From contig MEDY01000259.1 of the NCBI GenBank assembly GCA_001724265.1, positions 1 through 44,092 of the forward strand: a stretch of DNA of 44,092 bases. The letters are read 5' to 3'. The notes below the pieces were generated by a model, which was given only the letters and a program-made list of their open reading frames with translations, did not search any database and was not told the DNA's origin. This DNA is from Rhizaria sp. SCN 62-66. Its lineage: Eukaryota. The position numbers and the translations under genes are program-made. Positions 973-44,092 of the stretch are shown here, in pieces. The stretch's first letter is position 1; every line of letters starts with the position of its first letter.

Positions 973-989
973 TCGGTCGCACGGACTGG
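973..989. promoter_or_regulatory. Candidate cis-element TCGGTCGCACGGACTGG in the RPL18A/RPS28 bidirectional promoter
   Basis: 16/17 identical to 3492-3508 in the RPL23A/RPL4 spacer. An inverted copy of the CGGACTGG core lies at 1061-1068. Confidence 0.55.
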
Positions 990-1153
990 TCCGGCGGCTT
1001 AACTTGCGCCACGGGCCCTTAGACTGGCCGCTGTAAGGGCCGCCGGCCGCAACCGGGCCGCCAGTCCGGGGGCCCTGGGCCACCGGGGTGAGGTCGAGGG
1101 CCGATCTTCGAAAGGTCTTTGTTGCACAGAAGCATTCTGTAACAAAAACTAGA

Positions 1154-1856
1154 ATGGTACGTTAGCACTATCACATCATGTTCTTTCTTGTGATTTCTCC
1201 GCGTTTCTGCGCGATGGGCTCTACTTGTGCTGGCGATGTGTCGCGCGATCCGTCCTCGACCCACTGCCCAGCTCCCTCGCATCGCACCACACCTTTCGCT
1301 GCCCTGCGGTGCCTTCTCTGCGCTTCGATTGCCCGCTTTTGCTGCTTCAATACTCACATCCCTGTCTTCTCTATCTTTTCCCACTCTGCTCTGTGCCGCT
1401 GTTTCGCTTCCACAGTCTACCAAGAAGGCCAACAAGAAGGAGGAGGTTGTCGAGGACACCCAGGACGAGAAGCTCGTCGGCACCCACGCCACTGTCAAGG
1501 AGATCATCGGCCGGACTGGCTCCCGCGGTGGTGTCATCCAGGTACGCCTCTACTTTCTCTTGCTTCTATCACTCGCGCGCGCTCTCATGTCCCCTCAATC
1601 CACGCTCTATAGCACCGTCATCAGAACGCACCCCCGCTCACCTTTCCGCACTCGCTCTGTTCTCTCTCTCTTGCTCTCTTGCTGTCTCTCTGTTCGCCCT
1701 TTGCTATCTTTCTGACGCTTGTAGGTTCGCGTCGACTTCCTCGACGAGCGCTCCCGCACCCTCCGCTCCATTCTCCGCAACGTCAAGGGCCCCGTCCGCA
1801 AGGGTGACGTCCTTACCCTCCTCGAGACTGAGCGTGAGGCTCGCCGTGCCATGTAA
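1154..1856 (+). CDS. RPS28: 40S ribosomal protein S28 (eS28), 3 exons, 86 aa
   Basis: Exons 1154-1156 (ATG only), 1416-1541, 1725-1856. Contains [26 protein letters not shown]...[24 protein letters not shown]. Stop TAA. Confidence 0.96.
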
Positions 1857-2353: not shown

Positions 2354-3263
2354 TTAGAGGAAGCCGACGCGGGAGGCGACATCGGAGGCCTCAACATCAG
2401 CACCGAGGCGGCAGAAGGCCTTCTTCTTGCCATCGGGGCTAAAGAGGAGGAAACAAAGCACAGAAAAAAGTACAAGAGGAAAAAACAGAGGCTGTGAGTG
2501 AAGATGTTCCGAGAACAAGCAGCTACAGAGGAGAGCAAGGCGAGGACGCTGGCGGACTGCGCAAGCAAGAGTGCGGAGATGACGGGGAACGTACCGGATG
2601 AGGGTGTTGACGCTGACGACGGTGATGTCGTGGAGGTCCTTGAGGGCCTTCTTGATCTGGTTCTTGTTGGCGCGGGGGTCAACGAGGAAGGTGAGGGTGT
2701 TGGCCTTCTCGAGCTTCTTCATCGAGGAGTCGGTGAAGAGGGGGGACTTGATGATGGCGAACTTGTCCATGCCCTTGCCCTTGGCAACCGAGACGCGAGC
2801 GTACTTGGGGGCCGAGGCGAGGCGGAGAGTGTGAGGGCGAGTGAAGCGCACGGAGGTGCGGATCTTCTTGACCTGGGTGGCGGTGCCCTTCTGGACAGCC
2901 TTAGCGGCCTTGGTGGCCTTCTGAACCGCGGTGACCTTCTTAGGCGCAGCTGTAGTCGAGGGGAGGCGAGCAAGGAAAGAAAGGGATAGCGGAAGGAAAG
3001 AGGAAAGCGAGAGAAGACGTGAGCGTGGGTACTAGGGTTAGAATGATAAGAGAGAGCAAGGCGCAGCGCAGCGGAAGCGCTGGGATGGCACGAGTCGTGG
3101 TGCCGACAGCGAGTCGTGAATGGGACAGCGAGATGTTCCCGCCACGCCAGAGAGGCTGCGGGGACTGCAAATGGGTGCGGGGAGTCAAGCGACAGTGCTA
3201 GGCAGAGTGATAAAGCGGTGCAATATCTTCTAGTTAGCAGTAGAACGTACCCTTAGAGCTCAT
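2354..3263 (-). CDS. RPL23A: 60S ribosomal protein L23a (uL23), 3 exons, 150 aa
   Basis: Exons 3263-3251, 2949-2595, 2438-2354. Contains KIRTSVRFTRPHTLRL, IIKSPLFTDSSMKKLEKANTLTFLVD, ANKNQIKKA and VNTLIRPDGKKKAF. Stop TAA. Confidence 0.96.
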
Positions 3264-3491
3264 TTCCTCTGTGGAGAAGCAAAACAAGGGTGGTAGAGTG
3301 GGTGGGGCGAGAGACAGAGAGGCCACAGAGAGCGAACGCAAGTTAGTAATTGGGGGGAGAGATGGTTCTGGCGCGAGATGTAAAAGGATGTGATGGTAGA
3401 TGAAGATACAACATATTTTATACTCGAACGCTAAATCTGTTCAATGGTCTTCGAGTCCACTTGCAGCCCGAATTGATCGTCGCTCGGTCGC

Positions 3492-3508
3492 TCGGTCGCT
3501 CGGACTGG
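3492..3508. promoter_or_regulatory. Candidate cis-element TCGGTCGCTCGGACTGG in the RPL23A/RPL4 bidirectional promoter
   Basis: Near-identical to 973-989, within a short tandem GTCGCTCG repeat in a GC-rich spacer between divergent genes. Confidence 0.55.
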
Positions 3509-3923
3509 GTCCCCCGATACATAGTAGCCCCCCGGGGCCGGACTCAAAGTCAGGCCGCGTCGGAAGGCCTGTCCCGGTCGGGCTCTGGGCCTGCCCTCAC
3601 GGCCGCCCCACGGCTCTTGGCCCCGCTCAAACCACTTGCGATGGCTCTGCGCCCGCTTGATATCCAATTTTTTGTATTATGTTGCGATTGCAACGGTGTT
3701 TTTCTAGCTTGCGCGATTATTGCGCTCTCTCTTGACCGAGCTTTCCCTGTCTAAAGAGGCCTTTTCCCGAGTCCACCCTGAGGCCTGGTTCTCAGTGCTC
3801 TCGAGCCCCCTAGCTTTTCCGCCTTTGCCTTTCCTTCCACACCCCTCACTGACCTCATTTGATACTTTTGTTTCATTCTTGCGCTTCATTTTGTTCTCTT
3901 TTTGCTCTCAACTAGTCTCTAGC

Positions 3924-5372
3924 ATGGCCGCTGTGCGTCCTGTTCTGACGGTTTACAAGCTCAACGGCGAGAAGGCCGCGCAGGTTAAGACCCCCGCCGT
4001 CTTCACTGCCCCGATCCGTAAGGATGTTGTGCACTTTGTGCACACCAACATGGCCAAGAACCGCCGCCAGGCCTACGCCGTTAAGCGCTTCGCCGGTCTC
4101 GGCTACTCCGCCGTCTCCTGGGGCACTGGTCGCGCCGTCGCCCGCGTTCCCCGTATCTGCGGTGGTGGTACTTCCCGCTCCGGCCAGGGTGCTTTCGCCA
4201 ACCAGTGCCGTGGTGGTCAGCGCTTCCAGCCCACCAAGATCTGGCGCCGCTGGCACCGCAAGCTGAGCAAGAACGTCAAGCGTTACGCCGTCGCTGCCGC
4301 TCTTGCCGCTTCCGCCGTGTCGTCCCTCGTGATGGCCCGCGGCCATGCTATCGGCAACGTCCGTGAGATCCCTTTTGTTGTTGAGAACGAGATCGAGTCG
4401 ATCCGCAAGACTAAGGCTGCTGTTGCTGCCCTTAAGACTGTCGGTGCTGACGCCGATGTCATCCGTGCCAAGAACACCCGCAACATCCGCACTGGTGTCT
4501 CGAAGCTCCGTGGCCGTGCCCACACTGGCCGCAAGGGTCCCCTGATCGTCTTCGCCAACGACAACGGTATCACCCGTGCCTTCCGCAACCTCCCCGGTGT
4601 CGAGCTCGCCAACGTCAAGGACCTCAACCTCCTCAAGCTCGCCCCCGGCGGCACCATCGGCCGCTTCATCATCTGGACTGCCGGCGCCGTCGCTGAGCTC
4701 AACAACGTCTTCGGCACCACCACCACCCCTTCTAAGCAGAAGGCCGGCTACACCCTCCCCTACGCCCCCGTCACCAACGCCGACATCGACCGCATCATCA
4801 ACTCCAACGAGATCCAGTCCAAGCTCCGTGCCCCCAAGAAGACCTACGCCTACGTCCAGCGCCACAACCCCCTCACCAACTTCGCCGCCAAGGTTGCCCT
4901 CAACCCCTACGCTCTCTTCGCCCGCCGTGCTGAGGTCGCCAAGCAGGCCGCTACCGCTGCCTTCAAGAAGACCCAGCTCGAGGCCGCCCGTGCCGGCAAG
5001 CCCGTCCCCCTGTCTGCCTCCCAGATCAAGAAGCGCGCTCAGAAGCTTGCCACCCGCAAGCTCTCCAAGATGAACTACAAGCGCTCCGTCCTTGGCCAGC
5101 ACATCTCTGCCGAGGAGACCCGTGCCTCCCAGTTCAACATGGAGACCTACAAGAAGGCCATGAAGGCTACCGTCAAGGGTGCTTCCCCCAAGGCCTTCGA
5201 CATCGCCACCTACAAGGTCCCCGCCGCTGTCACCAAGAAGGTTGAGCACGCTGCCAAGATCGCCGCTGCTGTCGCTAAGAAGAACATCGCTGGCCGTCAG
5301 TACTACGCCAAGCAGGCCAAGGTCAAGGCTGCCGCTGCCGCCAAGGCTGCCACCGGTGCCAAGAAGAAGTAA
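3924..5372 (+). CDS. RPL4: 60S ribosomal protein L4 (uL4), 482 aa, with long K/A-rich C-terminal extension
   Basis: MAAVRPVLTVY...PAVFTAPIRKDVVHFVHTNMAKNRRQAYAV, SWGTGRAVARVPR, FQPTKIWRRWHRK, LNLLKLAPGGTIGRFIIWT. Single coding exon, probably with a 5'UTR intron. Stop TAA. Confidence 0.97.
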   Translation: MAAVRPVLTVYKLNGEKAAQVKTPAVFTAPIRKDVVHFVHTNMAKNRRQAYAVKRFAGLGYSAVSWGTGRAVARVPRICGGGTSRSGQGAFANQCRGGQRFQPTKIWRRWHRKLSKNVKRYAVAAALAASAVSSLVMARGHAIGNVREIPFVVENEIESIRKTKAAVAALKTVGADADVIRAKNTRNIRTGVSKLRGRAHTGRKGPLIVFANDNGITRAFRNLPGVELANVKDLNLLKLAPGGTIGRFIIWTAGAVAELNNVFGTTTTPSKQKAGYTLPYAPVTNADIDRIINSNEIQSKLRAPKKTYAYVQRHNPLTNFAAKVALNPYALFARRAEVAKQAATAAFKKTQLEAARAGKPVPLSASQIKKRAQKLATRKLSKMNYKRSVLGQHISAEETRASQFNMETYKKAMKATVKGASPKAFDIATYKVPAAVTKKVEHAAKIAAAVAKKNIAGRQYYAKQAKVKAAAAAKAATGAKKK

Positions 5373-5885
5373 ATTAGTCAACTTTTTGTTAAAAAAACAG
5401 TTAACTGATGTTACGACTCTTGTGTTGAAGGCTGTCTGAGGACTGTGCTTTGCGTGCGTGGTTGTGGTTGTTGCTGATGTGTATTCATCAGCAGCGCTTT
5501 ACGTGGGTTTTTTGTCACGAGGAACTTGCGTTTCGTTTCTTTCGATCGTTCGTTTTGTACAACAAGAACAAGGATTTTTTCACGGGTAGTTGCTGCTTTT
5601 AGCATGCAAAAAAACTATTCAAAAACTCCAATACAAGCTAGAGACTAAAATACTATTTCTTTTTGCTTCCTATTAGACTGTGTTTCAATGTGCTCTTTGA
5701 TTCCCTTCATGAAATCGATCTCTTAATCGCTGTGACAACTGACTTTGTATTACGTCTCGGGTTGTGACGTGTATGTGTGAGTGCTCAATGCGATTATTAG
5801 TTATGTGAATAAAAGCAATGCTAGATATGAGGTGAACGCATTTTTACATGATTAAGACGCTTTTGTGCTATATTAACGTCGTTTT

Positions 5886-6451
5886 TCAGGAGAAGAGAGC
5901 GAGCTCCTTGTACCGGCCTTGAATAGGCACCACTACGCCCACTGGCTTCGTCATAGTCGCAGGCGCCGTACTCGTGTCTGCTGGAGAAGCGGCTTGACTT
6001 CGAGGCGACGTGGTCGCGGCGGCAACTTGGCTTTGAACCCACGGCTGCGCATCGCTATTGCGCCACATGAAGCTGTTGACGGTCGCCGTCGCTGTGTTCG
6101 TAGTGTCCATGCTTTCCGCACTGTCTAGACCGCTGTTTGCGCGAGGGCTGGAGCTGGTCCACGCGAGCGCGTTGGCGATCTCAGCCGCAAACAGGTGCCA
6201 CGTCAGCTTCAGCCCCATGACCGTGAGCCGGGACACGCACCGCAGCCGACCGTGGGCAGCGCTGGGTGCGTTGTGACTCGGGCCAGAGGTGTTAGGGTGA
6301 CTGTGGCCGTGGGAGTGACCGTGGGAGTGACTGTGAGAGTGGGAGTGAGAGCTGCAACTGCCCGAGTCGCAGCTCGCGTTGCCGGAGCTGTGGCTGTGGC
6401 TGCAGCTTTCAGAGCCGCAACTCGACTTGCTCACGTTGCTGCTGCTGTCGG

Positions 6452-6523
<72 letters not shown>

Positions 6524-8610
6524 CGTCGGTGTTTTCAGGGAAGCAGAATGCAGGCAGCAGAAACGACGGCGTGACGGCAGCACTCGGCCACTGTTCCTGC
6601 TGTTGCTGATGTTGATGTTGCTTCGACGGCAATTGCGACTGCGCCAGTGCGCTCGCCGCAGCTGTTTTTGCGAGTGGAGTCAGAGTGTAGCGACCGAACG
6701 ACCAGTTCAACACGTAGGGCGCAACATCATTCTCCGAGTCTGCTTCCCCAGTCGTCAGAGCTCCCGCCTCACTGGCAGTGCTCCCAGTCGCGTCCGCGCT
6801 GCCCACGGTCACCCCGGCGGGGCTGGTGACCGTGAGCGCAGGCAGCGCCGCCGCCTTGGAGAGCCACACGACGCCCTTGATGCGGATGACGCCGTCGTAG
6901 TACGACACGGTTCGCAAAAAGGACTCCCAGTGAGACTTGGAGAAGCCCTTCTCAACGGAAGCAGTGCTTTTAGAGTCACTACTACTGCTGATGTCGCCAC
7001 CGAGCCATTCGATGTGGCCCACAACGACGTCGTCCTCGTCGTCCGACTGCCCTCGTCCCTGTCCCTGCCCCTGTCCCTGCTGCTGCTGCTGCTGCTGCTG
7101 CTAAGCCTGGTCCTGGTGACTGTGGTAGTACTCGCGCTGCTGCTGCTGCGGCTCGCCGTCGCTAAACGTTGCGATCTGCTCACGGTCGCTCACATCCTCA
7201 GTCTCAGCCCCAGAGTGCGATTGCGCCTGAGAGCGCGTCTTGTTGCGCGAGTCATAGCCGAAGACAAGGGCGGCCGGCACGCGCCCGCGGTCACTGCGCA
7301 GCACGTGCGCGTCGGGGTTCAAGTCGTACACAGCGTCTAGAACCTAAACAAGATGGGGGTTCATGACAGACAAGTAAGTTGCTGTCAGACTTGGTGCAGG
7401 AACGTCGTATTGCAGTTGACTGATCGCAATACAGAGAACATTTCACATCTCGAAATTACAATATAAGACACAAAATAGCAATTACATAGTTGACATTGAA
7501 ATGATTCGACTGATTTCAAGAGATAGGTTCTGAGGACTGCCTGATACGTACCTTTTCGACGTCTTTCCCGGGCGTCTTCTCCGCGAGCTCCCACTTGTTG
7601 AGCACGATGAGGTCGTTGTACTTGGCCTGCATGCGCGCCGTGGACGACGTGTCGGAGTACGAAGTGAAGTTCATCGCATCGATCACGCAGATAACGCTGT
7701 CGAGAGCAACAGGGTGAGCTATACAGTCGCAATAAGCGAAAATAGAGTCAAGTGTTGAATGAGATAAAAGTCGTTTATAATAGTCGTATAAACGATTGAT
7801 AGCCACGAATAATATAGATTATCCAAGTAATCGACAAATATATGAAATTTTCTCATGAAACGCATATACGCCGCAAAGTCGATGATTATGTGCGTACTTT
7901 TGGCGACGCGGTCGATTTCGTGCACAAGCGGGGTGGGGAAAGCGGAGCCAGACGTCTCGATAATAATGCGGTCGGGGTACACACGCTTCGCGGGCGCAGC
8001 AGTGCTCACAGTAGCATCCGCAACAGCTGTTGTATCGGCAGTGTCGGCAGAGACTGAGGAGGCATGAGTCGCAGCGGCGGTGATGAGGTTCGTGGTGTTC
8101 GAGCTCGCGACGCCCGTCGTGATCATAGCGGTCATCGTGACGGTGCCATCCTCGGTCACGCTCTCCGTGACCACAGTTCCCTCGCCGGGCTTGACCTCCG
8201 TGTTAATTTCGGCCTCGACGCCGTTGTCGGCGAGCTCGATAAGCGCGTCGCTGAGGCGGCCGACGAGCGTGCAGCAGAGGCAGCCGTTGAGGAGCTCGGT
8301 GACGCGCGCGACCGACGAGCGAGAGCCTAAAAGCGAGTCAACGGCATTAACACCAAACTCGTTTTTAAGCCAAACAGCGCTAAGAGAGAGAAAGAAAACA
8401 AGGGTGAGTCGAAGTGTTGGGCAACAGTGAGGGCTTCAGAGCATAGTATCTTGATTGAGTGAGGACGTACCGATAGTCAGAGCGCGTGCCTGGAGGACTA
8501 ATCTGGTCAAGCAGCGACATAATCATCGTTGTTTTGCCAGCGCCAAGGTATCCATTGACAATCGTGATGGGAATGCGGGGCCGCTCCGCCTCAAGTGACG
8601 AGGTCGACAT
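5886..8610 (-). CDS. COG0523/CobW-family (ZNG1/CBWD-like) metallochaperone GTPase, 4 exons, about 748 aa if TAG 7101-7103 is sense
   Basis: Exons 8610-8471, 8379-7898, 7718-7552, 7343-5886. Motifs: Walker A GYLGAGKTT, NEFG, GCLCC, IIIETSG, G4 LNKWE, CobW_C-like VIRIKGVVWL...VLNWSFGRY, His-rich tract. Stop TGA. Confidence 0.9.
6453..6523. repeat. (GCTGTT)n hexamer repeat encoding (Asn-Ser)n in the CobW protein
   Basis: Tandem gctgtt units visible in the sequence; the minus-strand ORF reads NSNSNSNSNSNS. Confidence 0.85.
7101..7103 (-). other. In-frame TAG (putative Gln) in the CobW gene
   Basis: Reads CAG GAC CAG GCT TAG CAG CAG CAG CAG CAG CAG CAG. ORFs 7101..7331 and 5886..7022 share one frame. 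Confidence 0.85.
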
Positions 8611-8970
8611 CCGCACTTTGCCGCCGTACAAGCACAGTCAAGAAGAGATAATTGAAAGATATGTGAAATGAATCAAATGTTTTTCTATGTAAAAACGCAT
8701 TGGGCGAACTAAGTATCTTATTGACGGATGTTTGAAGGTCGTATGCCATATTTCCAAAAGCTCGCTTTCGGAGCCTGACGAATCCTTGCAGTCGTGCAAT
8801 CACCACCACAAATTGCATTTCCAAGCTAAAACGGAGGTAAAACAGGATTACTGCCATCAAAATTCATATATACTATATATCACACAAATTAGACTATTAT
8901 ACTAGAATAAGGCTTGAGTTGAAGCATGTTATATAGATGATAACCTTTGCTAGCTCGAACTTCGTCAAGA

Positions 8971-9847
8971 TCATCGATAGTAGCTGTTGCTGTTGCGACC
9001 AGGTGCAGCAGCTGTTGCCGCTGCGGATATCGCTGCGGTGTTGATTGCTTGTACCCACTGCACCACCAGCGCATCACTCCTCGCACGCAGAGTAAGCACT
9101 TCAGCTTCGCTAGTCTCTCCTCCGGCCTCGTTGCCGTTGTCGTCATTGTAGCCTCTCATGTTCCCGCTTGCAGAAGCACTCGCTGAACGCAGTAGTAACA
9201 AGGACCGTGGACGGCGCGGATGCGGAAGAGCACGGAGCAGTTGCGCAAACGGCAACGCACCATCAGGCTATAAAAGACACAATAAGACACAAAAACAAAC
9301 AAAAATGTAAGTGACAAGCAGTAATTGATGAATGTGATTACTGAGACTTATATGAAAGCGAGAGGCTTTAATTTTCTTTTGATATAATCATAAAAATATA
9401 TCCAAAATGGTTTTTCAAGGTGATATCGAAACTATTAACCATTTGTGATGACTAAGATGAGTATTCATGTCAGTTATGCGTACCCTCCCTTCGACCTCAG
9501 CCCCCGTCTCGCCCGCCCCCACCGCCGCCACCGCCGCCCTCGCAGCCGACTGGGCCCGCTCGTACGCCGCGACCGTGGCCCGCGGTGCGGAGCGGTGCGG
9601 CTTAACTAACCGCCACTGCAGTCGGGTACAGTCAGTGTCGGTCCAGACGGAGACTGGGACAGGGACGACCGAGCTGCTCACGGTCGCCGCGCCGCCTGGC
9701 TTCGTCCCGGGCTTGGTGACTGTAGAGAGCGAAGGCAGGATAAGCTCAAACGTGTCGCCGGTGAGCAAAAGCATCTTTGTGTTAAGGTCCAACTGGGATT
9801 GCTGACGCTGCTGTTGCTGCTGTTGTTTCAGTTGTTGCTGGCGAAGT

Positions 9848-9879
<32 letters not shown>

Positions 9880-11870
9880 GTGTTGTTGCTGTTGTTGTTG
9901 CGCATGTGATTGTGAGTCCGACTGCGAGCTCAAGTTTGATTGCGACGGATTGTAGTACCCAGCCCTTAACCGCGCCAGTGCATTACCGCAGCCGCCGACG
10001 CCACTCACGCTGGCGTTGACCCTAAGAGGGGACGAGCCGAACACGGACGCCGCTCCTGCTGCTCCAGTCACTGACACTGACGCACTCTCTCGCTGCGACT
10101 GCTGCGCCTAAGCCTGTGCCCGTGGTTGAGACTGCAAGTGCAACTGCACGTGTGCGCGTGACTGAGCTTGCGCGAGCGACGACTGCACGAGCGCGTCGAG
10201 CGCGTCGTTGTTCGAAGTGAGGCCGCGCAGGTTTGTCGGCGCCCACAGACTACGGGGCTGTTGCTGCTGCTGCAGTTGTAGTTGTAGTTGCAACTGCTGT
10301 TGCTGCAGCTGTTGTTGCTGCTGCTGCATGCCAAGTCCTCGTGACAGCGGCCGTTGGCCCCTCTGAAGACGCTGTTGCTGCAACAAGAGCTCTTGTTGCT
10401 GCTGTTGCAGTTGCAGCTTCTGTTGATTGTTGAGTGAGACTGATGAAACAAGCGAGGATGCAGCTCGGCTAAAACGCTCTTCTTCCTCTTTCTTCAGCTT
10501 GGATTCGTAGAGAGCGTTTTCGCGCGCGAACAAAAGTTTGGCCGCCTGAAGCTTTGCGTGCAGCGTGCGCCTCGTGTCCAGGTTGCTATGAACAGCGTTG
10601 GCGTCTGCACTTGCGTCGCCTGTCAAATGACTGTAAGCACTCGCAGCAGTATTACGAGGCGTATCGATCACAATGTGGTTGCTGCTGCTCCTTGTGTTCA
10701 CGTCAGAGTACGCATTATTGTTGAAGTTGTGTGTGTAGTGATCGTTGTCATCGTCATCGTCATCACATCCGTCAGTCACATTGGCGCTGGCGCTCCCATT
10801 GGCACCGGCACTGGTGCTTGGCCAAGCCCCAGGCGCAGTCCGGCCCCTCTGCGCAGCGTATGCAGCGCCGGAGTTCAAGGCGGTCGCAGCAGCGTCTGCA
10901 TGCCTCTTGTGCGCTGCTGCTGCTGCCGCCGCAGCCGCCTCCGCCGCCCCGGTCGTAGCTGCGGCCGAAGCAGTAGCTGCTGCGTTGCTGCCCGTACCAG
11001 AGTTAGACTGCTGCTGTTGTTTCTGTTGCTTTTGCGCTGCTTTGAATGCGTAATACCCCGCAGCAGCAGAGGCAGCACCAACGCTCTCATAATCGCCGTT
11101 GTTGTTGTTGTCACTGGCGTTGTCGCTGTTCGCAGCGGCGGCAGAATGGCCACGGGCAGCACTATTAACAGCGGAAAAGTGGCTGCGACTCTCTGATGAG
11201 TGACCGTGTACAGCAGCAGGGCGCACTCGTAAGCACAGTGAGTCATACACGAGCTTCTGCTGCTGGTCCGACAAGAGCGTGTAAGCATCGGAGATTGCAA
11301 CGAACGCGGCAGAAGCAGTCTCGGTGGTAGCAGGGTCACTGTCAGTGAGCTTATCGGGGTGACAAAGCAACGCGAGTCTGCGTGATTTCAACAACGAGTC
11401 GACACAAAGCGAGACACAATGAATAATCACAAGTCAGAATAAAGAGAAGTTGTGGGTAAGAAGCTCGTCTTCAGAATTTTGACAGAGATAAGAAACCAAA
11501 CGGAGTACTCAGGCGTATTGCAATATATAAAACTACGTTAGGTATACCATATCCCACTTGAATGAAAGAAATTAAGATATTTGCGTGGGGTATGCGAGGA
11601 AACGTACTGGCGGTACTTGCTCCTGACTTCGCTCACAGTTGCGCTTTGAGGCAGCCCTAAAACAGAGTAGTGGTCGACAAAAGCCACGACTTGCTGCGGC
11701 TATTGCTGCTGATGTTGATTGTACTGCCATTGGTGATAGCCCGCGTTCGCGTTGACAGCGGCGGCGAACGAGGACGCTGACGAAGGCAAAGGACGGAGTG
11801 GCAGGGACTGTGGCTGCGCCGCGCGCGTGACGCGGGCGATTTCCGCTAAGGCAACCGCTACAGCGCTCAT
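8971..11870 (-). CDS. J-domain (DnaJ/Hsp40) protein with Q/A/N-rich linker and C-terminal PH-like domain, 3 exons, about 817 aa with two in-frame TAG
   Basis: Exons 11870-11608, 11377-9484, 9267-8971. J domain: DHYSVLGLPQSATVSEVRSKYRQLALLCHPDK...FVAISDAYTLLSD...YD. PH-like end: RLQWRLVK...DGALPFAQL...LTLRARSDALVVQWVQAIN. Stop TGA. Confidence 0.85.
10108..10110 (-). other. In-frame TAG (putative Gln) in the J-PH gene
   Basis: Reads QSQPRAQA*AQQSQ. ORFs 10108..11430 and 9415..10077 are in frame, 10 codons apart. Confidence 0.8.
11700..11702 (-). other. In-frame TAG (putative Gln) just upstream of the J domain
   Basis: Reads CAA CAT CAG CAG CAA TAG CCG CAG CAA GTC GTG GCT TTT GTC GAC CAC TAC. 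No in-frame ATG lies between the TAG and the J domain. Confidence 0.8.
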
Positions 11871-12228
11871 ATTTGCGCAGAATAACGTTCAATGTATACG
11901 AAAACCGATCTATGAAGCTATGGCAGACCATTTTGTTCAGATAGCGATGATTTGAAGGGCGTTCACGTGCGGTGAGTTTGCGGTGTGGAAAGGCAGTGAG
12001 CGTGTAGGGAATATGAAGGCATAGATCGAATAAAGTAAGCTTTGTATAATAAATAATTTTAGTTTTAGTGAGACTAAGTAACATATTTGTTCAATAAATA
12101 CATTGACGATCATTCCACAGAGAACGCCTCGTCACAATTCCGTCCGTTATATCAAAGAAGCAAGCAAGCGTTCGCTCTTACATTTCACACCGCGTTAGCT
12201 AGAAAGCAGCGGTCACGTTGCGTATCAC

Positions 12229-13092
12229 TCACTGTTGTTGAGACTCGTCACCAGTCCACAGTGACGACGACGATGCTGACAGCAAACGCCGCGCAAAGTT
12301 AAGCCGCCACTCCGCACGACGATGACGAGCAATATCATCATTCACAGCACTCGTACTCGCATCAGCAGCAGCAGGAACAGCAGCAAGAGTGTTGTGAGAG
12401 TTGTTATTGTTGTTGCTGTTGCTGTTGCCTTGGTTATCGGGGTGACCGTGGTCAGCAGGAAGGCGCAGCAGGCGGCTTAGGTTAAAGCTATGCGGCGCAA
12501 CGACAGTCCTCACGGAGCCACCCCACTGAGTCAGGTCGTTGATGTAAGTGCCCACGTTGTCGCTGTTGCTCGAGTAAGTAGCGGCACAGTCAGAAGCGCA
12601 TAGAATAGCCGACATTGAGGTGCCGTTGCTCGTGGTACTTACATTGCCTTCAGTGCTACTTACACCGCTGCCAGAGCCACTATTATCACTGTCAGTGCTC
12701 GCAGCACTTACGCTGGAGCTGGCGGCACTGAGACTGTCGGCGGAGAGCGGGGGAGATGTGAGGCCTAAGTACCCCCCAACTCTATACCAAGCGTAGGCAA
12801 AGTAACCTTGCTGCTGCTGCTGCTCTAGTTGAGATTGCACAGTAACATTACTCTTGTCAGCGATCGTGTTCGAGTCCGCGTTCACAGTGCTCAGAACAGC
12901 AGTCTCTCGCAGGGAGCCAGGCTGCTCCTCCAGCTTCACATCGGGCTCCTGCTTCTGTTCCTGCTTCTGTTCCTGCTTCTGCTCTAGCGTTTGCTCTTGC
13001 TCGAGCTCCATGCTGCTGAACACGGCCACGGGCCGCGCCCGCGCCCTCACGACCGCGGCCGCCGCCGCAGCCTCGGCCTCCGCAGCGGCCAT

Positions 13093-13123
<31 letters not shown>

Positions 13124-16100
13124 GCGCGGGCGCGGGCAGCGAGCGAGAGCGCGAGGAAGTACGCAGGACGCAGCAGCGGGGCATACAAGAGCAGGGAGCG
13201 GGTCGCGCTCTCGCTGCCAACAGCCGCGCTCTCGCTGCGAGCAGCCGCGCTCTCGTTGTCGCGGCCGCGGCTTGCGCTAACCCTAGCGTCGCTGTTGCCG
13301 CCGGCAGAGGCAGAACTCGTCACGGGCGCCACTGCCGCTGCCGCCGCTGAGACACCATCAGTGGGGGCAGAGGCAGAGGTAGTTATAGCGCCGAAATCAC
13401 TGCTCGGCGACCCACTCACGCTCGTGGCGCCCGTGTCAGCAATGCGCGCCGCCTGCGCCGGAGCTGTAGCGCCGTTGTTGCTGCTTCCGACACCTGGGGT
13501 GCCGCCGAAGCTAAGGATATACGACAAGAACGACTGAGACTGCTGCGCCTGCGGCTGTGTCTTAGCCAGCGACTGTACCGACGGTGACTGTGAGTCAGCA
13601 ACCGCAACTGCCTGTGAGCTCTTCGCAACAGCTGACTGCAAGTCAGCGTCGAGGAGGCTAGACTCGTTGCCGTGAGTTTGGGCGTTCACGGACGCGTTGC
13701 CGCTCACAGAGACAGAGTCCGTGGCAATGACTGCGGCCACGCTGTCGTTCCCGCCCGCACTCGCATTGCCACTCGCGCTGGCGCTTGCACTGGGGCCAAC
13801 GCTGCCACTGCTGGCGATCGGAGCGAGGACGTCGTCGTTGGTGATGTTGCCCTGAGCCGTCGCACTACTCCTCGCGGTGTTGCCACCTGCGGTGCTCTCG
13901 TCTGTGTCATCAGCACCGCTCTGATTATGATGATGATGACTATGGTTGTGGTGAAGGTGGTTGTCGTGCTTGTGCGTGTGTGTCAGCAGCCGGATGAGCG
14001 GCCCGAGCCCGGGCAGCTCCCCGGGCTCCGGGTCAGTGACGACAACGCCGACGCAGCCGCAGTCGCCCGCGCTCTGCACCAGGTGCTCACGGTCGCTCAG
14101 CGGCCGCGCGCGGTCGCGCTCAGAGTCGCCGTCGCAGTCCTCAGCATTGTCGTCATAATCGTCGTCGTCATCATCGTCGTCGTTGTTGTTGCTGAAGGTA
14201 TTGTTGCTGAGATCGTCGAGCTGGGCACTTAGCCGGCGGTGTAAGTGCCGCGCCGCGCCGGTTCTCTGTAAGTACCCGTCGTGGTAGTCCACAGGCGAGT
14301 CGCCGCAGCAGAGGCGGCTCGACTTGATGAGGCTGGGTAGACCGACGCTGACGGCCCAGTGCGGCAGCGCGACCGCGACGACGACCTCGTCGCTGGCACT
14401 GCGAGCGCCGCCATCAACCGAGCTCTCACCCGCATTCGCACCCGCACTCGCGCTGGCGTTGGCGCTGACAGGGTCGGCATCGCTCAGGTTCGCGGGGCGA
14501 GCAGTGGAGCTAGCGACGGATGCGTTGGCGTTCAAGATGCCGATGTCGGTCGCGATGTTGTTGGTGTTGTTGTTGCTGATGCTCTTATTGTTCCCATTCG
14601 CATTCACAGTCAAAACAGTCATGCTCTTGTTGTTATTGTGAGTGGCTGCGGCGCTGTCAGTGGCGCCCACGGTGGCAGCGATCGCCGCCGTGGTCGAGTC
14701 GTGGATCGCGGCGGCCGCGGCGGCCACGGCGGCGGCGGCGGCCGCGGCCGTCGTGTGCTTCGCGTACTTGCCTCCACCAGTCGCACTGTTTACACTCGCG
14801 CTGAGAGTGTTTGTGCTGTTACTAGCGGTAGCGTTCGCGAGTATAGCATCCTTCGTGGTAGGCGCGGCCGCAGCTGCATCGACGTCGGCGCTAACCCCCA
14901 AGCTAGCGTTGCTGTTGCTCTTGATGCTGTGCGCGTTAGCAGTGTCTTCGTTGTCGGTGCTGGGGGTCGCCGCGTTGACATTGCAGATGGCAGCGGTCAG
15001 CACAATCATCACTCGCGTGCGCGCGCGCGCGAGCTCATCGTTGAGGTTGATGTCTAAGGGGGCACTTATGTCTACGGGGGTACTTACACCACCAGCGCTC
15101 TCGGTCGCAGTCGTCGCGGCAGGCATAGCTGTCGCAGCATCAGTTGCAACAGCGTTCAAACTCGAGGTTGCATCAGCCACAGCCAAAGTCACTGCCGCAG
15201 ACGCAGCAGCGGTCGCAGTGTCGTCACAGGCGGTGCGCGCTTGAGCTGGTACGCTTGCACCGACCTCAGCGTTGTTGCTGGCATCACTGCTAGCGTCAGT
15301 GTAAGTACTTGCGCGGTCCATGTAAGGGCTGTATCCACTTAGCAGCGACTCAATCATGTCCACCGAGGAGGACCCCGCCATGTAAGCGCCCTCATCCTCG
15401 TCTGTCTAAGGGCCGCGCGCGCGGCGCGTTTGGCTGTAGGTGAACAAGAAGGGGTTCAGACTGTAGTCGTCGGTCAGGGGCTCGAAGCGCACGACACCGC
15501 CACCGCCGCCGCCGGCACTCTTGGCGGCGACGGCGGCGTGGGCGCTGGCTGCAGCTGCTGCAGCCGCCGAGGCAGCAGCGGTGGCGGCGGCAGTGGCAGT
15601 AGCGTCGGCATCGGCCGCCGCAGCGGCCAAGGCTAGCGCAGCGCCCTTCTTTGCGCCCGCACTCGCATCAGCGCCAGCGCCAGTGTTGGCCGCGGCGCTC
15701 TTGTCCAGACTCTGCGACTGCGCAGACTGCGTAGACTGTGTCGACTGCGTGGGTTGCGAAGAGAAGAGCGACCACGTCATGTTGAGCAGCGACTCCACCA
15801 CGCTTACACCGTCGTCGCGTGGAGCACTTACCCCGTCTAAGGGGGCACTTATACCTGCCACTGGAACAGCAGCAACAGCACTTGCACTCGCAGCGTCAAC
15901 AGCGTTATTCGCGCCCACACTGCTGTCGACAACGTTGGCGTTTGAGCTGCTACTGGTGGTGCTATCGGACTCCGCCGCCGTCACAGCGGGCTTCGCCGCC
16001 GCTGCCGCGCTGCTGCTCGGCTGCGCGACGGCGCTGCTGGTGGTGTGCGCGACGGCGAGGTGGCTGTGCGCGGACACGAGGTGCTCGAGGGCCTGCGCGA

Positions 16101-17086
16101 CGAGCAGCAGCCCCGACGTTGGCGATAACAGCGAGGGGGGCAGCACGACTGCCAGCGCCGCCGCCACGGCCAGCGGGTCCGAGCTCGACGCCAGAGTCGC
16201 CAACGCGTCCGCCAGAGACGTCGCGCCAGCGGCACCGTCGCCGTCGTCGCCGTCGCCGTCGCCGTGACTGTCAGCGTCAGCGGCGTCGGGGTGGTGGCCG
16301 TGGTGGGGCAGGAGTAGAGCGGAGTTGAGCTGTGAGTGCGAGTGCGGGTGCAGCGAGACAACGCCGCCAGACTTGCCGTTTCCCGCCTTGCTGGCCCGCC
16401 TCGCGCTACTCTTGGCCTTGCCGCCGCCGCTCTTTGCGTTCAGGGAGCTGTTGCTGTGTGAGTTGTTGCTGTAGAGCGCCGTGGGCGACGAGAAGTCGAC
16501 CGAGGAGAGCATGTCGCGCTCGTACCGGGCCGCTTCCTCGGCCTCCTGCGCGGCCTTAAGCCGCTGGTAGGCGTAGTAGTCCTCCCAGCGCTGACTGGAC
16601 ATGTCGAAGGCGGCGCCGAAGCTGGCCAGCTCGCGGTAGGCGAAGGACCGGACGCGGATGCTGCCCTTGAGAATCGCAGTCTGCGGGTGCACGCGGTTCA
16701 TGTACACGTCCATGAACGTGTCCATGGCGCAGGAGCACTCGCAGGTAACCTGTGCGCGGGCAAAACAGGTCGGGAAGGTGAGTGGCGAAGAGAGAACGGG
16801 AGCAGTGCGCGAATGTGGGGTGAGTGAGATTCAAGCGGGGAACGAGGAGGCTTTGCATTTGCGACTGGGTAGAGACGGAGTCGAGCGCGGAACGTACGTG
16901 TTTGTCTTCGGGAACGTCTTTATAGATAATGACCCCTGTCTCGGGGGTGACGCGGATGGCCCTGACCTCTTCTTTGCCGTCAACATCAACGCGGAACATG
17001 ACGGTGCCCTTGTAGGGCCCGCCCGCGAGATGGGCGAATCGCAGGAAGTCCATCGTCTCGTCAAGCTCTTTTACGCGGTCTGTCAT
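12229..17086 (-). CDS. Large protein with N-terminal SCP2 (sterol carrier)-like domain and long low-complexity tail, about 1570 aa with one in-frame TAG; start uncertain (possible extra exon from ATG 17247)
   Basis: Exons 17086-16898 and 16749-12229. YKGTVMFRVD...VTCECSCAMDTFMDVYMNRVHPQTAILKGSIRVR resembles the SCP2 pattern. Stop TGA. Confidence 0.7.
15406..15408 (-). other. In-frame TAG in the SCP2-domain gene
   Basis: Reads RARGP*TDEDEGAYMAGSS. ORFs 15406..16725 and 12229..15381 are in frame, 8 codons apart. Confidence 0.75.
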
Positions 17087-17876: not shown

Positions 17877-20800
17877 ATGGCGAGTCTTGAGCTGTACACG
17901 CTTGCCGGCGAGGTTTTGCGTGACTTTCTGCTCTCCAAGGGTTCGCTCAAGGTTCGTTTTACACCACTCATTCGGTTGCCCAATGCTATCCTAATTCGAC
18001 ATGCCGGTCGACCTAAGCAATATGAATTCTACTCCAGACTAAACTCAATGCCTATATATGTGTTATTGCATCTTTTTGTTGTTGTGCACTTTCACAGAAC
18101 CTTTGTTACGCTGCGCGCATTCCCCCCGCGTTCCGCGCGCCGATCATCTCCCTGGTCAACAACACACTGCGCTTCCGCCCGCTGCTGCTCTCCATCCTCA
18201 CCACCGCACACATCCCCGGCTTCCGCCTCGCAGACGTCGTCAAGTACGAGGCCAACGCGCGCTTCAACGCTCTTCTGGCCCCCGCCGCGAACAACAGCAG
18301 TTCTGCTAGCGCTGGTACTGGCGCTTCTGTTGACGACGACGACGAAAACGGCGGTGTGGAGCTCCCCACGGGCGCTGCGGCCCTTGAAGGCAGCTCGCAG
18401 GCCTCCTGGCAGCCCGCGACCGTTGCTGTTACTCTTAACGTGACTAACAATAATAACGCTGGTGCAAACGCCAACGCTGGCCACAAGGGACAGCAGCACA
18501 ACAACAAAAGCACCTCGTCGACCGTCAAGATCCGCTTCGAGCGCGAGGCGATGCTGATTCTGGCCTACGATATGCTCTTCGGCCAGGGCCTGCCGCGCTT
18601 CGCGGCCGCCAACAGCGCCGCTCCCGGTACTGGTGCCGCTCACGGTCACCCCAAGGGTTCCCATGGCTCTCACAACAACAACGCCGCCGGCGGCGGCGGC
18701 GGCGGCGACCGGAGCGATCCGTACGGCTTCAAGGCCGCGGCTCGTTTGCTCTCGACGCAGCCGTGCCCGCTGCCGCCGCCGCCCGCGGGCAGCCACGCGT
18801 TTGCGGTGACGCCCTCGACCTACACCAAGCCCGCCTCCAAAGCGAAGGAGAGTCAGGTAAGCAAGGACGATAAAGACAGCAGTGCAAGCGCTGATGCTGC
18901 GGACGCTGCCGCGAACGACAGCATCGTCGCGGGCAGCAGCAGCAACAGCTGCCACAGCAACGCGACGGCCATCACAGCTTACGGCCTGCATCTGACCCAG
19001 GCTGCGGCGGCCGGCGCGCTGTCGGTGCTGGTTGACTGGGGCGAGAATAAGGCCCGCGAGGCCGCGGCGGCGGCGGCGAACCCCGCGGCCAACACCAATG
19101 CGAACAACAACAACAAGTTCAACAACAAGAGCTACAACAACAAGTTTGGCAACAACGCGAAGCACACCTCGAACGCTAGTTCCAGCACCGGCGGCGGCGG
19201 CGGCGGCTTCGGCAGTGCCAGCGTCAGTGAGGTAAAGACGGCGATCGTGCGCGCCGCGCAGGCAGTGTGCCGAGTGCTGGCGCTGCCGCTGCCGCCGGCG
19301 CTGGCTGCGCTGGACCCGCAGGCCGCGGCGGCGGGCCCCAGTCCCCACCCATACGCCCACGTGAACAACAACAGCGGCGGCGGCGGCGCGGGCGGCGGCG
19401 CCAACGGCGGCGGTGGCGGCAACAAGGGCTTCAACAAGGGCTCTGGCGGCAACAACAATAACAACAGCAGCGGAAACAACGGCGGCAATGTGGGTAAAGT
19501 GTGGTTTTTGGGCCCGTTCCCCCCCGTCGCCAGCGCCAGCAGCCCCGCACACAGTCTCAAGCTGCCTCTCACCACGATCGTTCCCAGCGCCCCCTCGACC
19601 AGCAGCAAGGCCAACGTCAGTGCCAGCGCCAGCTCGAGCTCTCCTGCGAGTGCGGGTGCAGCGTTGGTGTCACCGCCGCCGCTGCTGGTGGGCTCGCTGC
19701 AATACACTGTGGCCGCCGCTGGCCCCGCGGTGACCGGCGACGACGTCAACAACAACCTGAACACAAAGCAACACTTTAACAACAACAACAACAAGTTTGC
19801 TGGCGCGAGCGGCAAGGATAGCAAGGATAACTTGGCCCCCCGCGACTGGCCTCTGTCGAAGCGGCTTCACTTCCTGCTCGCCTCCGTCGCCCGCCGGCAC
19901 CCAAACTATCCCAATAGCGCCGCCCACGACACTTCCAAAGGCGGCGGCCAGAGCGGCGGTCAGAGCGGCGCGATGACTGTGCGTACCGAGAGCGTGATCA
20001 CCGACGCCGCCCTCGACCCCGCGCACGCGGTGACCGTGGGCCACGCCGCCGCGCTGCTGCTTGCGGCGGGCAGCGCGGCCACTGCCTCCGGAGTGGGCGC
20101 CAACGTCCGCGGGCTGCCCGCCGGTCTGGGCGCCGTCGACCCGTACGCGCACATGCTGCCGCCGGCCTTGGTGTTGGCGACCTCGCAGTCGGGGCCCTGG
20201 AGCACGGTCAGCTCGCGCCGGCCGCGCTACCTGCGCGTCAACACGCTCGTCGACGTCGCCACCGTGGCTAAAGCTGCGATCGAGCTCGCCAACACAGTCC
20301 CCAGCGTCAAAACCAAGGGCAAGCACAGCGCGGACGCTGCTGCCGCGGACGCTGCGGTCGCGGCCGCGGCGAAGGAGGCTGCCGACGCGACCAAGAAGCA
20401 CGGCAAGAAGGGCAAGAACATGGCCGACAGCGACGACGACAGCGACGACGCCACTGACAGTGAAGGCGATGACGATGACGACGACGACGGCGAGAATGAG
20501 AACAACGAGTCCGACGCCGAGTCCGCGTCGAAGCCCAACTCTAGCGAGGCCAACGCAGGCGCGTTCGGTTGCGGCGTGGCCGATGCGCTGGCTCCGCTGC
20601 TAGGCCCGCGCGCCGCGGCGCTGCTCGCGGCTGCGTTGCGCGCGCGGTCGCTGCCCGCGGTCACGCTACTGCTCACGGCGCTCGTCGCGGCCGCGCGCGA
20701 CGCCGCGGCGCGCAAGATCAGGGCCGCGCTGCTCCAGCAGGGCCCCGCGAAGGCCGCGTCTGCTGCTAACGATGCGAACGTTGCTGGTGTCGATAACGTG

Positions 20801-23800
20801 TTCGCCGAGATGGGCGCCGAGTGCATGGACCGGCTGCTCCGCCTGCCTTCTAACAGCGACATTGCTGGTTCGAGTGTTGTGAGCGCCAGCGACGCCGCGC
20901 TGCTGCTGCTGCCCGCGACACACACGCATCTGCCGCTGGCGCGCGTGCTGCTCGCCGTCGCGGGCTACACAGAGGCTGACACGTACACCGTGCAAAGTGC
21001 TGTAACGAACAACAACGCGGTGAGCGCGACGGCTAGTGTCGCTAGCGTCGGGGCCGACGCTGCCGGCGCGAGCGCGAGCGCGAGCGCGAATGCGAGCGCG
21101 GGCGCCGTCGTGCCGGTGCCCAGTGTGTGGGCCTCTGGCGGCGACGGCCCCTGGCGCAACCCCCCCGCCACCCACACCGCTGCGAACGCTCGCTCTGAGA
21201 AGCCGACAATTGCTAGTGCTAGTGCGAGCGGCAATCATGGTAGCAACAGTGCGGTCGTCGCGCCTGCCGCGAACGTGTACTGGCTGGACCCCGGACCCCT
21301 CTTCCCGTTCCTGCTTACGTTCCCGCCCTCGGCCGCAGCGAAGCCGCCGTCTCTGACCCTCAGCCAGAGCAGTGGCAGAGGCGGCAACGTGCTGCCCGTG
21401 GCGCTGCTGGGCACCGCGCTCATCACGAGCGGCGCGCTGATCCCGCAGGACAAGGCCTCCTGCTTCACGCCCGCCGCGCTGCTGGGCCCAGAGCTGCACG
21501 GCATGTGGGGGCAGGTGCTGCCGCAGGTCGCCGCCGCAAGCGATCCCAGTCAAGCGAGCTCTACCGAGGCGCAAATTGACGACGACGTTGACGACTTGAT
21601 CGACGCGTGCGCTGCGCCCGGCAACAAGACGAGTTTCGCCACTGCGCTGACGGACCAAAAGGTGAAGCAGCACGCCTGGCTGCGCTATCTCGCCGCCCGC
21701 GCGCTGCCGAGCAACGGCGAGAACAGCAAGAGCAGCGCTACCGATGGCGCGAGTGCGAGTTCCAGTGCGGTGACGAGTGATGCTGAGAAGCTGAGCCGTC
21801 TCGAGTCGCTGCTCCGTTCTATCAACACCAACGGCAGTGCTTCTGAGAAGAGTGCCAGTGAGACCAAGACCGTGTTCGCGATCGAGCGCAACCACTCCCG
21901 CGCGCAGATGCTGCGCCGCCGCATGGCCCACAGCCACGCGCTGCCCGCCAACGCCGGCAAGCACGGCAGCAGTGACTCCGCGGCGCCCGCTAACGACGGC
22001 GACAGCAAGCTCTGGCGAAGCATCTACGTCGTCACGGACGCGACCAAGCTCCAGCGCGCCGCCACCACCGCCGCCGCCGCTGCCGTTGACGCCAGCTCTA
22101 GCTCGAGCTCTCATGCTGTTGACGCCGAGGTGAGCGCCGCGATCGCCGCCGCGGCCGCGTTCGGCGGTGTGTTCAACGCGAAGACGGCCGCGGTGACGGT
22201 GCTGCATACGTCCTTCTTCCTGCTGGATCCGCAGTCGGCGCAGTTCGCGGCCGTGGGCAGCGTGATGCTCGACCCCTCGTGCTCGGGCAGCGGCAACCCG
22301 TCGCTCGACGCGCTCTTCGCCACGGGCGGGCTCCAGGGCGACTACGAGGACGGCGGCTGTGGGTTCCACTACGACACCCGCAACAGCACTGGCACCAGCC
22401 CTAGCGCCAACAGTCACACCGCTGTGCCGTACAACGCGCTGCTGGCGAACGCCGTGGCGATCGCGCTGGACCCCAGCTCGAAGCGGCCCCGGTCCAAGCA
22501 GCCTCCCTACCGCACGCCCGCGGTGCCGGCGCCCGCGGACGCGCTTAACTCGCCCGCGCCGCACCCTTGCACGCACCTGGGCACGTCGCTGCACGTGCGC
22601 TCGCTCAGCGACCTGCAGACAGCGCTGCTCGCGCACGCCGCGCGCTTCCCCGCTGTGCGCGCCATCGGCTACTCGACGTGCTCCATCTTCACCCGCGAGA
22701 ACGAGGGCGTCGTCATGCGCTTTATGCCGCACGTACGTGATCTTTCTCTTGTAATACGATATGACGACGAACTTTACCTTTGAAACTCATTGTATTTTGT
22801 ATTTATAGTGAAATATCAACCGATTTGAAATCGCTAACTTTGACTAACTTTGATTTTTGTTTTTGCTGTCCTCTCATGTCTGTGCACGAATAGGCTGCCG
22901 CCGCCGGCTTCGCGCTGGCCCCCGCCCTTCCCCGGCAGGCTTGGCGCCGCCGAGGCATCACCGTGGCCCCCGCCGAGCAGCTGCAGGGCGTCGTCACCGC
23001 CGCCACCGCCGCCGCCACCGCGAGCGTGCTCTCGCAAGCCGCCGCCGCCGCCGCCAGTGGGGGTAAGTGCGACGCGGTTCTGGGACAGCTGCTGCCGCAG
23101 GCGCCGCTTGCGCTCGCGGCCCGCCTGCTGCACTACGACGGCAAGAGCACCGGCCCTATCACGAGCTCGACTGACTGCGACATCGACGACGACGACGAGT
23201 GCCAGAGGGCCATCGCCGCCGCGGAGGCTGCCGGTGCGGCCGAACAGGCTGCGCTCGTGGCCAAGGGCACGGCCCTGTTCTGGCGCCTGTCCGGCGTCAC
23301 CATCACCAACGCAAGCCTCACTCCGGCCGTGACCGCGACTGCTGCTGACTCCAGCTCTAGCTCCAGCTCCGGCTTCCGCTCCGGCTCTGGTTGCGACGCG
23401 AGCAGTGCTGTGGGCGTGCTGCCGGTGGTCTCGTTCCCGGGCGGGCTGCTATGCTCCCGCGGCGACCCCGACCACGACTCGATGGGCGGCTTCTTTGTCG
23501 CCGTGTTCCGCCGGCTCAGCGCCCCTCTAGGTGCCCCGCACACCGCGGCGCAGAAGAAGAAGCGGGCGAGCAGCGCTGTGATGCTGCGCAAGTACTTGGA
23601 CCTGTCTAAGTACCAGGGTCCTGGTATTAAGTCGGAGGCGCTGGCAGCCAAGCTCGCGAGCGGAGTGCTCGGACGGCAGGTTGCAGTAAGCAGCAGTGAC
23701 AGCGACATCGGTGCTGTTGATGCTTCTGTTGCTGCTGATGATGGCGAGGAGCAGAAGGAGTCTAGCGTTGATGTTGCGAAGAGTAATAAGAAGCGGACTC

Positions 23801-41796: not shown

Positions 41797-41820
41797 GTGT
41801 GTGTGTGTGTGTGTGTGTGT
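41797..41820. repeat. (GT)12 microsatellite
   Basis: Read directly from the sequence. Confidence 0.95.

Positions 41821-44034: not shown

Positions 44035-44035
<1 letters not shown>

Positions 44036-44092
<57 letters not shown>
44036..44092. repeat. (AC)n microsatellite running to the window end
   Basis: Perfect AC repeat of 57 nt, possibly a contig end. Confidence 0.97.

Follow-up and report, generated by a model that had tools for sequence, protein, structure and literature searches.

The window analysed here, a stretch of 44,092 nt, is contig MEDY01000259.1 of Rhizaria sp. SCN 62-66 (GCA_001724265.1). Its GC content is 57%, it contains spliceosomal introns and ribosomal protein genes, and nearly all sampled words of it were found in contigs from bioreactor, wastewater and sludge runs dating from 2015 to 2025. 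On its minus strand lie three genes, for a putative CobW/ZNG1-like GTPase, a putative DnaJ-domain protein and a large SCP2-like protein with a low-complexity tail, which together carry four in-frame TAG codons; the genes modelled in the window end in TAA or TGA. The reading favoured here, with moderate confidence, is that UAG is a rare sense codon in this organism, most likely for glutamine (Gln), and that UAA and UGA end genes, which matches NCBI table 15. The genes and codons concerned are the following, where positions count from the first letter of the window and (TAG) marks the codon within its protein context:

5886 to 8610, minus strand: CobW/ZNG1-like GTPase gene; ATG at 8610, intron donors at 8470, 7897 and 7551, exon 4 at 7343-5889, TGA stop at 5886
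8971 to 11870, minus strand: DnaJ-domain gene; exon 1 at 11870-11608, intron 11607-11378, exon 2 at 11377-9484, intron 9483-9268, exon 3 at 9267-8974, TGA stop at 8971
12229 to 17086, minus strand: SCP2-like gene with a low-complexity tail of about 1500 amino acids (aa); exon 1 at 17086-16898, intron 16897-16750, exon 2 at 16749-12232, TGA stop at 12229
7101 to 7103, minus strand: in-frame TAG in exon 4 of the CobW-like gene, immediately preceding (CAG)8; context DQA(TAG)QQQQQQQQ
10108 to 10110, minus strand: in-frame TAG in exon 2 of the DnaJ gene; context RAQA(TAG)AQQSQ, followed by GCG CAG CAG
11700 to 11702, minus strand: in-frame TAG in exon 1 of the DnaJ gene, codon 57, eight codons before the J domain; context QHQQQ(TAG)PQQ
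15406 to 15408, minus strand: in-frame TAG in exon 2 of the SCP2-like low-complexity gene; context RARGP(TAG)TDEDE
7344 to 7346, minus strand: TAG that is not a codon, the 3' end (acceptor) of CobW intron 3, where TTGTTTAG is followed by GT

The preliminary description of this stretch had reported four in-frame minus-strand TAGs in three genes, three of them in a Gln-rich context; all coordinates and contexts are as claimed, and the intron acceptor at 7344 had correctly been left out of the count. At 11700, the codons run CAG CAG CAA TAG CCG CAG CAA. The TAG letters are real in DNA at 10108, 11700 and 15406, as judged from contigs of two studies other than that of the likely source sample. Contigs of one (run X3) span 11700 and 15406 with zero differing letters, and contigs of the other (run X4) span 10108, 11700 and 15406 with differences elsewhere only (four in one piece, one in the other); the TAGs are the same in samples from 2017 and 2025. 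A JGI contig identical to positions 7820-15825 of the window also carries these three codons and is perhaps not independent. With three codons invariant in contigs from two other studies, it is extremely improbable that the TAGs arose as errors of assembly or sequencing or as a mutation peculiar to one strain, an explanation that could draw on 7101, which sits at a repeat edge and is not covered independently. The 2025 run (X4) further shows a 6-nt deletion at 12967, in the large gene past TAG 15406, a multiple of three but in a repeat, and C>T is the most frequent class of its differences from the window (16 places).

Whether these codons are read through depends on the genes in which they lie. 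In the DnaJ gene, positions 1-22 of the DnaJ profile match in exon 1 after TAG 11700 (Pfam E=5e-4) and positions 22-63 match in exon 2 (E=3e-7). Exon 1 ends in phase 2, and splicing rebuilds YRQLALLCHPDK (SKYRQ joined to LALLCHPDK), leaving the J domain complete; with HPDK, containing the HPD motif, in exon 2, the product is predicted to be a J-domain protein. The sole in-frame ATG of exon 1 is at 11870, 56 codons upstream of TAG 11700, and there is no ATG between this TAG and the J domain, nor before the HPD motif. Because the J domain fixes the frame and the only ATG stands upstream, with none after, TAG 11700 would lie inside the coding sequence. Towards its 3' end, exon 2 reaches the GTACGC donor at 9483 in phase 0, and exon 3 continues this phase with 98 open codons before the TGA at 8971. 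The C-terminal part of about 190 residues (8974-9771, minus strand, split by the intron 9483-9268) is not of low complexity; none of 3,391 candidate proteins, all of 369-1176 aa, passed as a homologue of it, and it matched no Pfam family.

In the CobW-like gene, the cobW family of Pfam matches exon 2 (E=1.8e-11), exon 1 contains a GAGKT P-loop, and exon 4 opens with the conserved LNPDAHVLRSDRG, the end of the GTPase part ('LNPDAHV...'). After TAG 7101, CobW_C was the best or second-best Pfam match in two scans (E=0.012 and 0.006 among 24,736 models), and the TAG thus falls between the end of the GTPase and a weak CobW_C match. For one family expected beforehand, this match corresponds to a p value of about 1e-7 to 1e-6 and may hence be taken as strong. 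The gene therefore appears to have the layout of its family, a P-loop GTPase domain plus a CobW_C domain, the latter weak and sub-threshold. As for the large gene, the N-terminus is similar to the last part of an SCP2 domain, its intron splits the SCP2-like domain, and weak SCP2 matches occur in two of nine scanned homologues. An 800-aa query running across TAG 15406 (exon 2 from the ATG at 16725) found 24 homologues, all matching its first 60-119 residues or so only; none of the 24 matches spans the TAG.

The frames are open on both sides of the TAGs, as the preliminary description had pointed out, but this provides no evidence beyond chance, for non-coding frames do likewise. When open reading frames (ORFs) were relisted with one stop codon at a time read as sense, keeping pieces of at least 80 codons, single-stop junctions also turned up, whichever of TAG, TAA and TGA was chosen, in ORFs that are antisense or off-frame; the non-coding TAG junctions include 5877-7466, 15058-15840 and 20034-20882 on the plus strand and 19960-21234 and 22803-23897 on the minus strand. 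Long chance ORFs are common, reaching 706 aa antisense to the NSUN-like gene and 403 aa antisense to CobW exon 4. Such antisense ORFs stand opposite genes with a high GC content at third codon positions, at 18092-22786 (minus strand, 525-706 aa), 6129-7340 (plus strand, 403 aa) and 39429-40847 (minus strand, 472 aa). The last was rejected as a gene, given that a codon-usage model puts the coding sequence on the plus strand, as 38837-39423 and 39513-40802 joined by an intron.

Two further measures compare the gene frame with its alternatives. Downstream of the TAGs the gene frame is free of stops for 404 codons (7101), 207 codons (10108) and 1058 codons (15406); the two other sense frames have 10 and 12 stops after 7101, 7 and 7 after 10108, and 39 and 63 after 15406. 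The codon-usage model, trained on Pfam-supported genes, ranked the coding frame top in six of eight 100-codon flanks, both flanks of 10108 failing, and in zero of six controls taken after real stops; the training set of this run included one wrongly oriented ORF (39432-40847, minus strand), which was left out when whole segments were scored, and CobW exon 3 stood in the wrong frame in both scorings. For whole segments, the coding frame came top in five of six cases (before and after 7101, before and after 15406, and before 10108), the segment after 10108 giving a tie. Close to the TAGs (within 20-150 nt on each side) the GC content is 0.48-0.76, whereas 0.36-0.42 is typical of intergenic spacers and several introns; this difference does not decide the matter by itself, because the introns of RPL23A are not AT-rich. 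Contigs from a poly(A) RNA library, into which DNA may have been carried over, map downstream of TAGs at 6596-6882, 13595-13936 and 14319-14549. By start-codon and domain logic, open frames and the codon model, UAG would thus stand in frame within otherwise intact coding sequences at four sites in three genes.

Removal of the TAGs by splicing can be judged from the donor sites, which are unusually strict, as every modelled intron begins with GTACG[TC]: three in the CobW-like gene, two in the DnaJ gene, two in RPL23A, and those of the large gene, the NSUN-like gene, the 2H-SAK gene, the 35-kb gene and the 39-kb gene. Their positions are:

8470, 7897, 7551, 11607, 9483, 3250, 2594, 16897 and 35341, minus strand: GTACG[TC] donors of modelled introns
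22733, 29245 and 39424, plus strand: GTACG[TC] donors of modelled introns

On the minus strand, no GTACG[TC] occurs between 7101 and 7551, 10108 and 11607, 11700 and 13186, or 15406 and 16897. The hexamers at 7551, 11607 and 16897 are donors, each of an intron that ends before the TAG concerned is reached, and that at 13186 is inside an exon of the preceding gene; no GTACG[TC] donor is free to excise any TAG, and splicing was rejected. Two other intron candidates were discarded as well: a 31-nt interval GTACTA...TAG at 7101, which would shift the frame, and a U12-type intron, whose sole donor-like match (13513) is 3' of the TAG and at chance level. Acceptors end in TAG in 7 of 10 cases read, and such exon-adjacent TAGs, common here, can mimic in-frame stops (7344, 9268, 22891 and 35333).

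The use of stop codons can be followed in 13 modelled genes, of which five end in TAA, eight in TGA and none in TAG. The genes ending in TAA, as modelled, are:

2354 to 3263, minus strand: RPL23A gene, three exons, TAA end at 2354
3921 to 5372, plus strand: RPL4 gene, TAA end at 5370; control for TAA as a stop and for the placement of the organism
24174: end of a gene with TAA
29771: end of the 2H-SAK gene with TAA
34786: end of a gene with TAA

RPL4 and RPL23A stop at TAA where homology ends, and TAA is therefore a terminator. With five TAA and eight TGA ends, UAA and UGA act as terminators. The earlier observation that no gene contains an internal TAA or TGA is partly circular: no gene model needs one, but the exons were delimited as ORFs. 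The claim that none of 14 complete genes ends in TAG is borne out by the 13 that could be modelled, in which UAG has no use as a terminator. If TAG made up 20-30% of stops, the chance of finding none would be about 0.01-0.05, in what is a small sample. A seeming TAG gene end at 35333 was dismissed, being part of a GTACGTTAG donor. It is quite improbable that UAG has a dual meaning, as a sense codon with some use as a terminator: 13 gene ends leave room for some TAG terminators, and sense TAGs are very scarce in the window, but not one such terminator was found, and in the known codes of this kind listed in PMC11687900 all three stop codons take part, while TAA and TGA behave as ordinary stops in the window. 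ORF structures with in-frame stops also lie elsewhere in the window. The ORF at 42282-43355 (minus strand), with two in-frame TAGs, was rejected, since it is pyrimidine-rich and both visual inspection and the codon model mark it as non-coding; it lies in the AT-rich (GC 0.34-0.40), pyrimidine-rich contig end at 41400-44092, which holds no convincing gene. A TAA-joined ORF pair at 35637-36707 (plus strand) was set aside as antisense or off-frame to a minus-strand gene, and a second such pair, at 401-1549 (minus strand), could be coding or non-coding.

If UAG is a sense codon, it is quite likely to specify Gln, as the local context suggests. The gene models contain four TAGs against 255 CAG and 87 CAA, that is, TAG would make up about 1.2% of putative Gln codons. 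A context test set the frequency of Gln among the two, three or five residues on each side of the TAGs against that around every residue in 24 exon segments (9,374 codons), CobW exon 3 being left out. With a flat prior, the posterior was 0.98-0.99 for Gln and at most 0.001 for leucine (Leu), and serine (Ser) fell below the six best. The preliminary description had cautioned that Gln was deduced from local context, not from alignment columns, and this caveat stands, as no TAG falls in an alignable column: the homologue searches across 15406, for the C-terminal part of the DnaJ protein and, in PDB, for CobW exon 4 gave no alignment spanning any site. Neutral CAG-to-TAG transitions would explain the position of three of the four TAGs in or beside CAG/CAA runs. 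In the likely scheme, new TAGs would arise from these transitions (three sites being informative), UAG would be decoded by a tRNA-Gln with the anticodon CUA or by a near-cognate tRNA-Gln(CUG), and eRF1 would be poor at recognising UAG.

The amino acid assignment is linked to the position of the organism among eukaryotes, for which RPL4 provides a lead. The closest database protein to RPL4 is 70% identical, and the best named one, from Guttulinopsis vulgaris (EukProt), is 63% identical over 71% of the query. A FastTree tree of 120 rows and a quick IQ-TREE search on 52 of them agree: a clade of 20 rows, with a support of 100 in each, unites the query, its 70% relative and Guttulinopsis, the sole named rhizarian, and stands apart from rows named Andalucia, Pythium and Symbiochloris. 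In a search with RPL23A (43 candidates), the named matches were Mucorales, Vitrella and Diphylleia, with no rhizarian. Kinship with Guttulinopsis is thus a lead, drawn from one protein with one named anchor.

This lead bears on how often UAG has been reassigned. An independent origin of the change, put forward in the preliminary description, is unsupported as stated, since the RPL4 clade includes Guttulinopsis, a member of the sainouroid group that, according to PMC5304391, holds an organism reading UAG as Leu. Because of this grouping, the loss of UAG as a stop may instead be shared, or the Leu meaning may apply. One tentative scenario, to which only a modest chance is given, is that a free-living sainouroid relative, still very early in the change and with low usage (about 1% of Gln codons), reads UAG as Gln and the rhizarian exLh reads it as Leu, the clade having lost the UAG terminator once and its lineages having captured the codon differently. 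A single clade-wide loss of this kind would fit with the stop codon of Guttulinopsis, which is almost exclusively UAA (PMC5304391).

The neighbourhood of RPL4 and its counterparts elsewhere were followed as well. RPL23A (minus strand) and RPL4 (plus strand) form a divergent pair at 2354-5372, and in a relative the RPL23A (85% identical, P0164) and RPL4 (70%, cluster of P0005/P0124) are each on a JGI contig of the same length, 7,569 nt; the pair is therefore probably conserved, and that contig would be the nearest relative available. Among orthologous loci of relatives, a metagenome scan with the CobW exon gave only the JGI contig (L001) identical to the window. RPL4 scans of genome contigs and viral contigs found nothing, and a scan of genome contigs with the RPL4 alignment found nine contigs (L002-L010) with a eukaryotic-type RPL4 (uL4/L4e). 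These are filed under bacterial or archaeal records, such as Rhizobium, Microbacterium and a Desulfosporosinus metagenome-assembled genome, and eukaryotic contamination is likely; the RPL4 filed under the archaeal Wukongarchaeum, the weakest match (41%), may be native. Neither L010 (39% GC, with RPL4 over 8 kb) nor L005 (32% GC) had CobW, DnaJ or SCP2 matches. The other seven show 41-60% identity to RPL4; six of them are shorter than 1.6 kb, and L009 is 7.7 kb long.

Taken together, gene structure, codon statistics and stop usage, from four codons on one 44-kb contig, support well the part of the earlier claim that makes TAG a sense codon, which is very probably the case in this organism; for the other part, Gln as its meaning, local context is what speaks. 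Several observations weigh against UAG as a Gln codon. The four codons are few, and none stands in a conserved alignment column. TAG 7101 lies at the edge of the (CAG)8 repeat, where contigs break, and is in none of the listed contig pieces; the CobW_C match after it is under the Pfam cut-off, and for exon 4 this domain found no confirmation in PDB (low-complexity matches only), NCBIfam (nothing) or two Atlas searches (no usable lead). The flanks of 10108 are of low complexity, and the codon model is ambiguous there. At 15406, an ATG stands nine codons past the TAG, and the N-terminal domain has homologues of 65-524 aa; this site alone may represent two abutting genes. Among the listed RNA-library pieces, none spans any of the four TAGs. 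The context test presumes that TAG shares the contexts of its synonymous codons, and it has three informative sites. No tRNA gene was found in the window, nor any Rfam match, the window does not encode eRF1, and the nearest organism known with a sense UAG, exLh, reads it as Leu (PMC5304391).

Some of these points would suit a standard code, in which the TAGs are true stops of truncated genes or pseudogenes, mark abutting gene pairs, or are subject to low-level read-through yielding minor isoforms. Chance long frames do arise in GC-rich, repeat-rich DNA, at 15406 an ATG is near and the N-terminal domain has short homologues, another ATG follows 10108 by about 117 codons, and none of the listed RNA pieces bridges a TAG. 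This explanation is nevertheless improbable. It would leave the J domain without a start codon and deprive the CobW-like protein of its C-terminal domain, and the frames past the TAGs are stop-free, unlike the other frames, and score as coding. Between tandem genes measured in the window, the stop is separated from the following ATG by about 360 nt of AT-rich sequence, as against 27 nt at more than 60% GC at 15406. Furthermore, all four interruptions are TAG, with no TAA, TGA or frameshift among them, none of the 13 genes ends in TAG, and the codons are unaltered between the 2017 and 2025 samples.

A sense codon for another amino acid, most plausibly Leu as in the sainouroid exLh, has a minor though real chance. 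It would accord with the RPL4 clade (20 rows, support 100) that contains Guttulinopsis vulgaris, the closest sequenced relative of exLh (PMC5304391); Leu also occurs within Gln runs of the same DnaJ protein (QQQLQQQQLQLQLQ), and TTG to TAG is a single change. The context test, however, gives Leu at most 0.001 and Gln 0.98-0.99, and four TAGs in about 9,400 codons compare with 384 in 71 genes of exLh (PMC5304391). There is no TAG in the Leu-rich MFS or NSUN-like genes, and TAG 7101 resembles a mutated first unit of a (CAG)9 run. The trait that marks exLh, abundant UAG at conserved Leu positions, is lacking here, with zero TAGs in the conserved domains of the RPL4, MFS, NSUN-like and SF3A2 genes. 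Gln accordingly stays the preferred assignment, at the strength given above.

Nuclear codes that split UAG from UAA are known from a handful of lineages, namely exLh, Iotanema, a few ciliates and Scotinosphaera. The present one, if true, would add an accessible GC-rich, intron-bearing protist that recurs in wastewater and bioreactors over ten years, and if the rhizarian placement is also true, one clade would hold two meanings of UAG and allow a direct test of codon-capture versus ambiguous-intermediate models. On the practical side, gene callers using the standard code split genes at such TAGs: the 1506-codon exon with 15406 is read as ORFs of 474 aa and 1058 aa. No description of a rhizarian that reads UAG as Gln turned up in full-text literature searches, which covered sources other than subscription journals and supplementary files.

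The reassignment of UAG alone is probably real, and the kind of code change is rare but already known. In Iotanema spirale (Fornicata), UAG encodes Gln, and UAA and UGA are stops (PMC5304391). The likeness to the window extends to UAG alone being reassigned, UAA being kept as a stop, and UAG being a minority Gln codon (about 8% in Iotanema; PMC5304391). The two differ in that Iotanema belongs to an unrelated lineage and TAG is rarer here (about 1.2% of putative Gln codons), with TGA as the commonest stop (8 of 13); moreover, Gln was established in Iotanema at conserved columns and by likelihood (PMC5304391), whereas here it is drawn from context only.

Among phyllopharyngean ciliates, UAG has become Leu once and Gln twice; it is also Gln in Protocruzia, and Ser in Scotinosphaera (PMC11687900). 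Hartmannula sinica, Trochilia petrani and Protocruzia tuzeti resemble the window in reading UAG, and only UAG, as Gln, under the same NCBI table 15 (PMC11687900). In these ciliates UAA is by far the preferred stop (PMC11687900), and what sets the window apart from them is its introns, about 90-300 nt long and with a donor that is strictly GTACG[TC], and its RPL4, which groups away from them. Scotinosphaera is similar in that UAG, as Ser, is decoupled from UAA as a stop (PMC11687900), but Ser is not favoured by context here.

The comparison closest in probable descent is with exLh (Sainouroidea), where UAG is Leu, only UAA and UGA serve as stops, and Guttulinopsis is the closest sequenced relative, according to PMC5304391. 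The two organisms are probably of the same broad clade, and in both UAG would be a sense codon, never a terminator, that is absent from or rare in ribosomal protein genes (PMC5304391). In exLh, however, UAG is Leu and abundant (384 in 71 genes; PMC5304391), whereas the window has few UAGs, in contexts that favour Gln.

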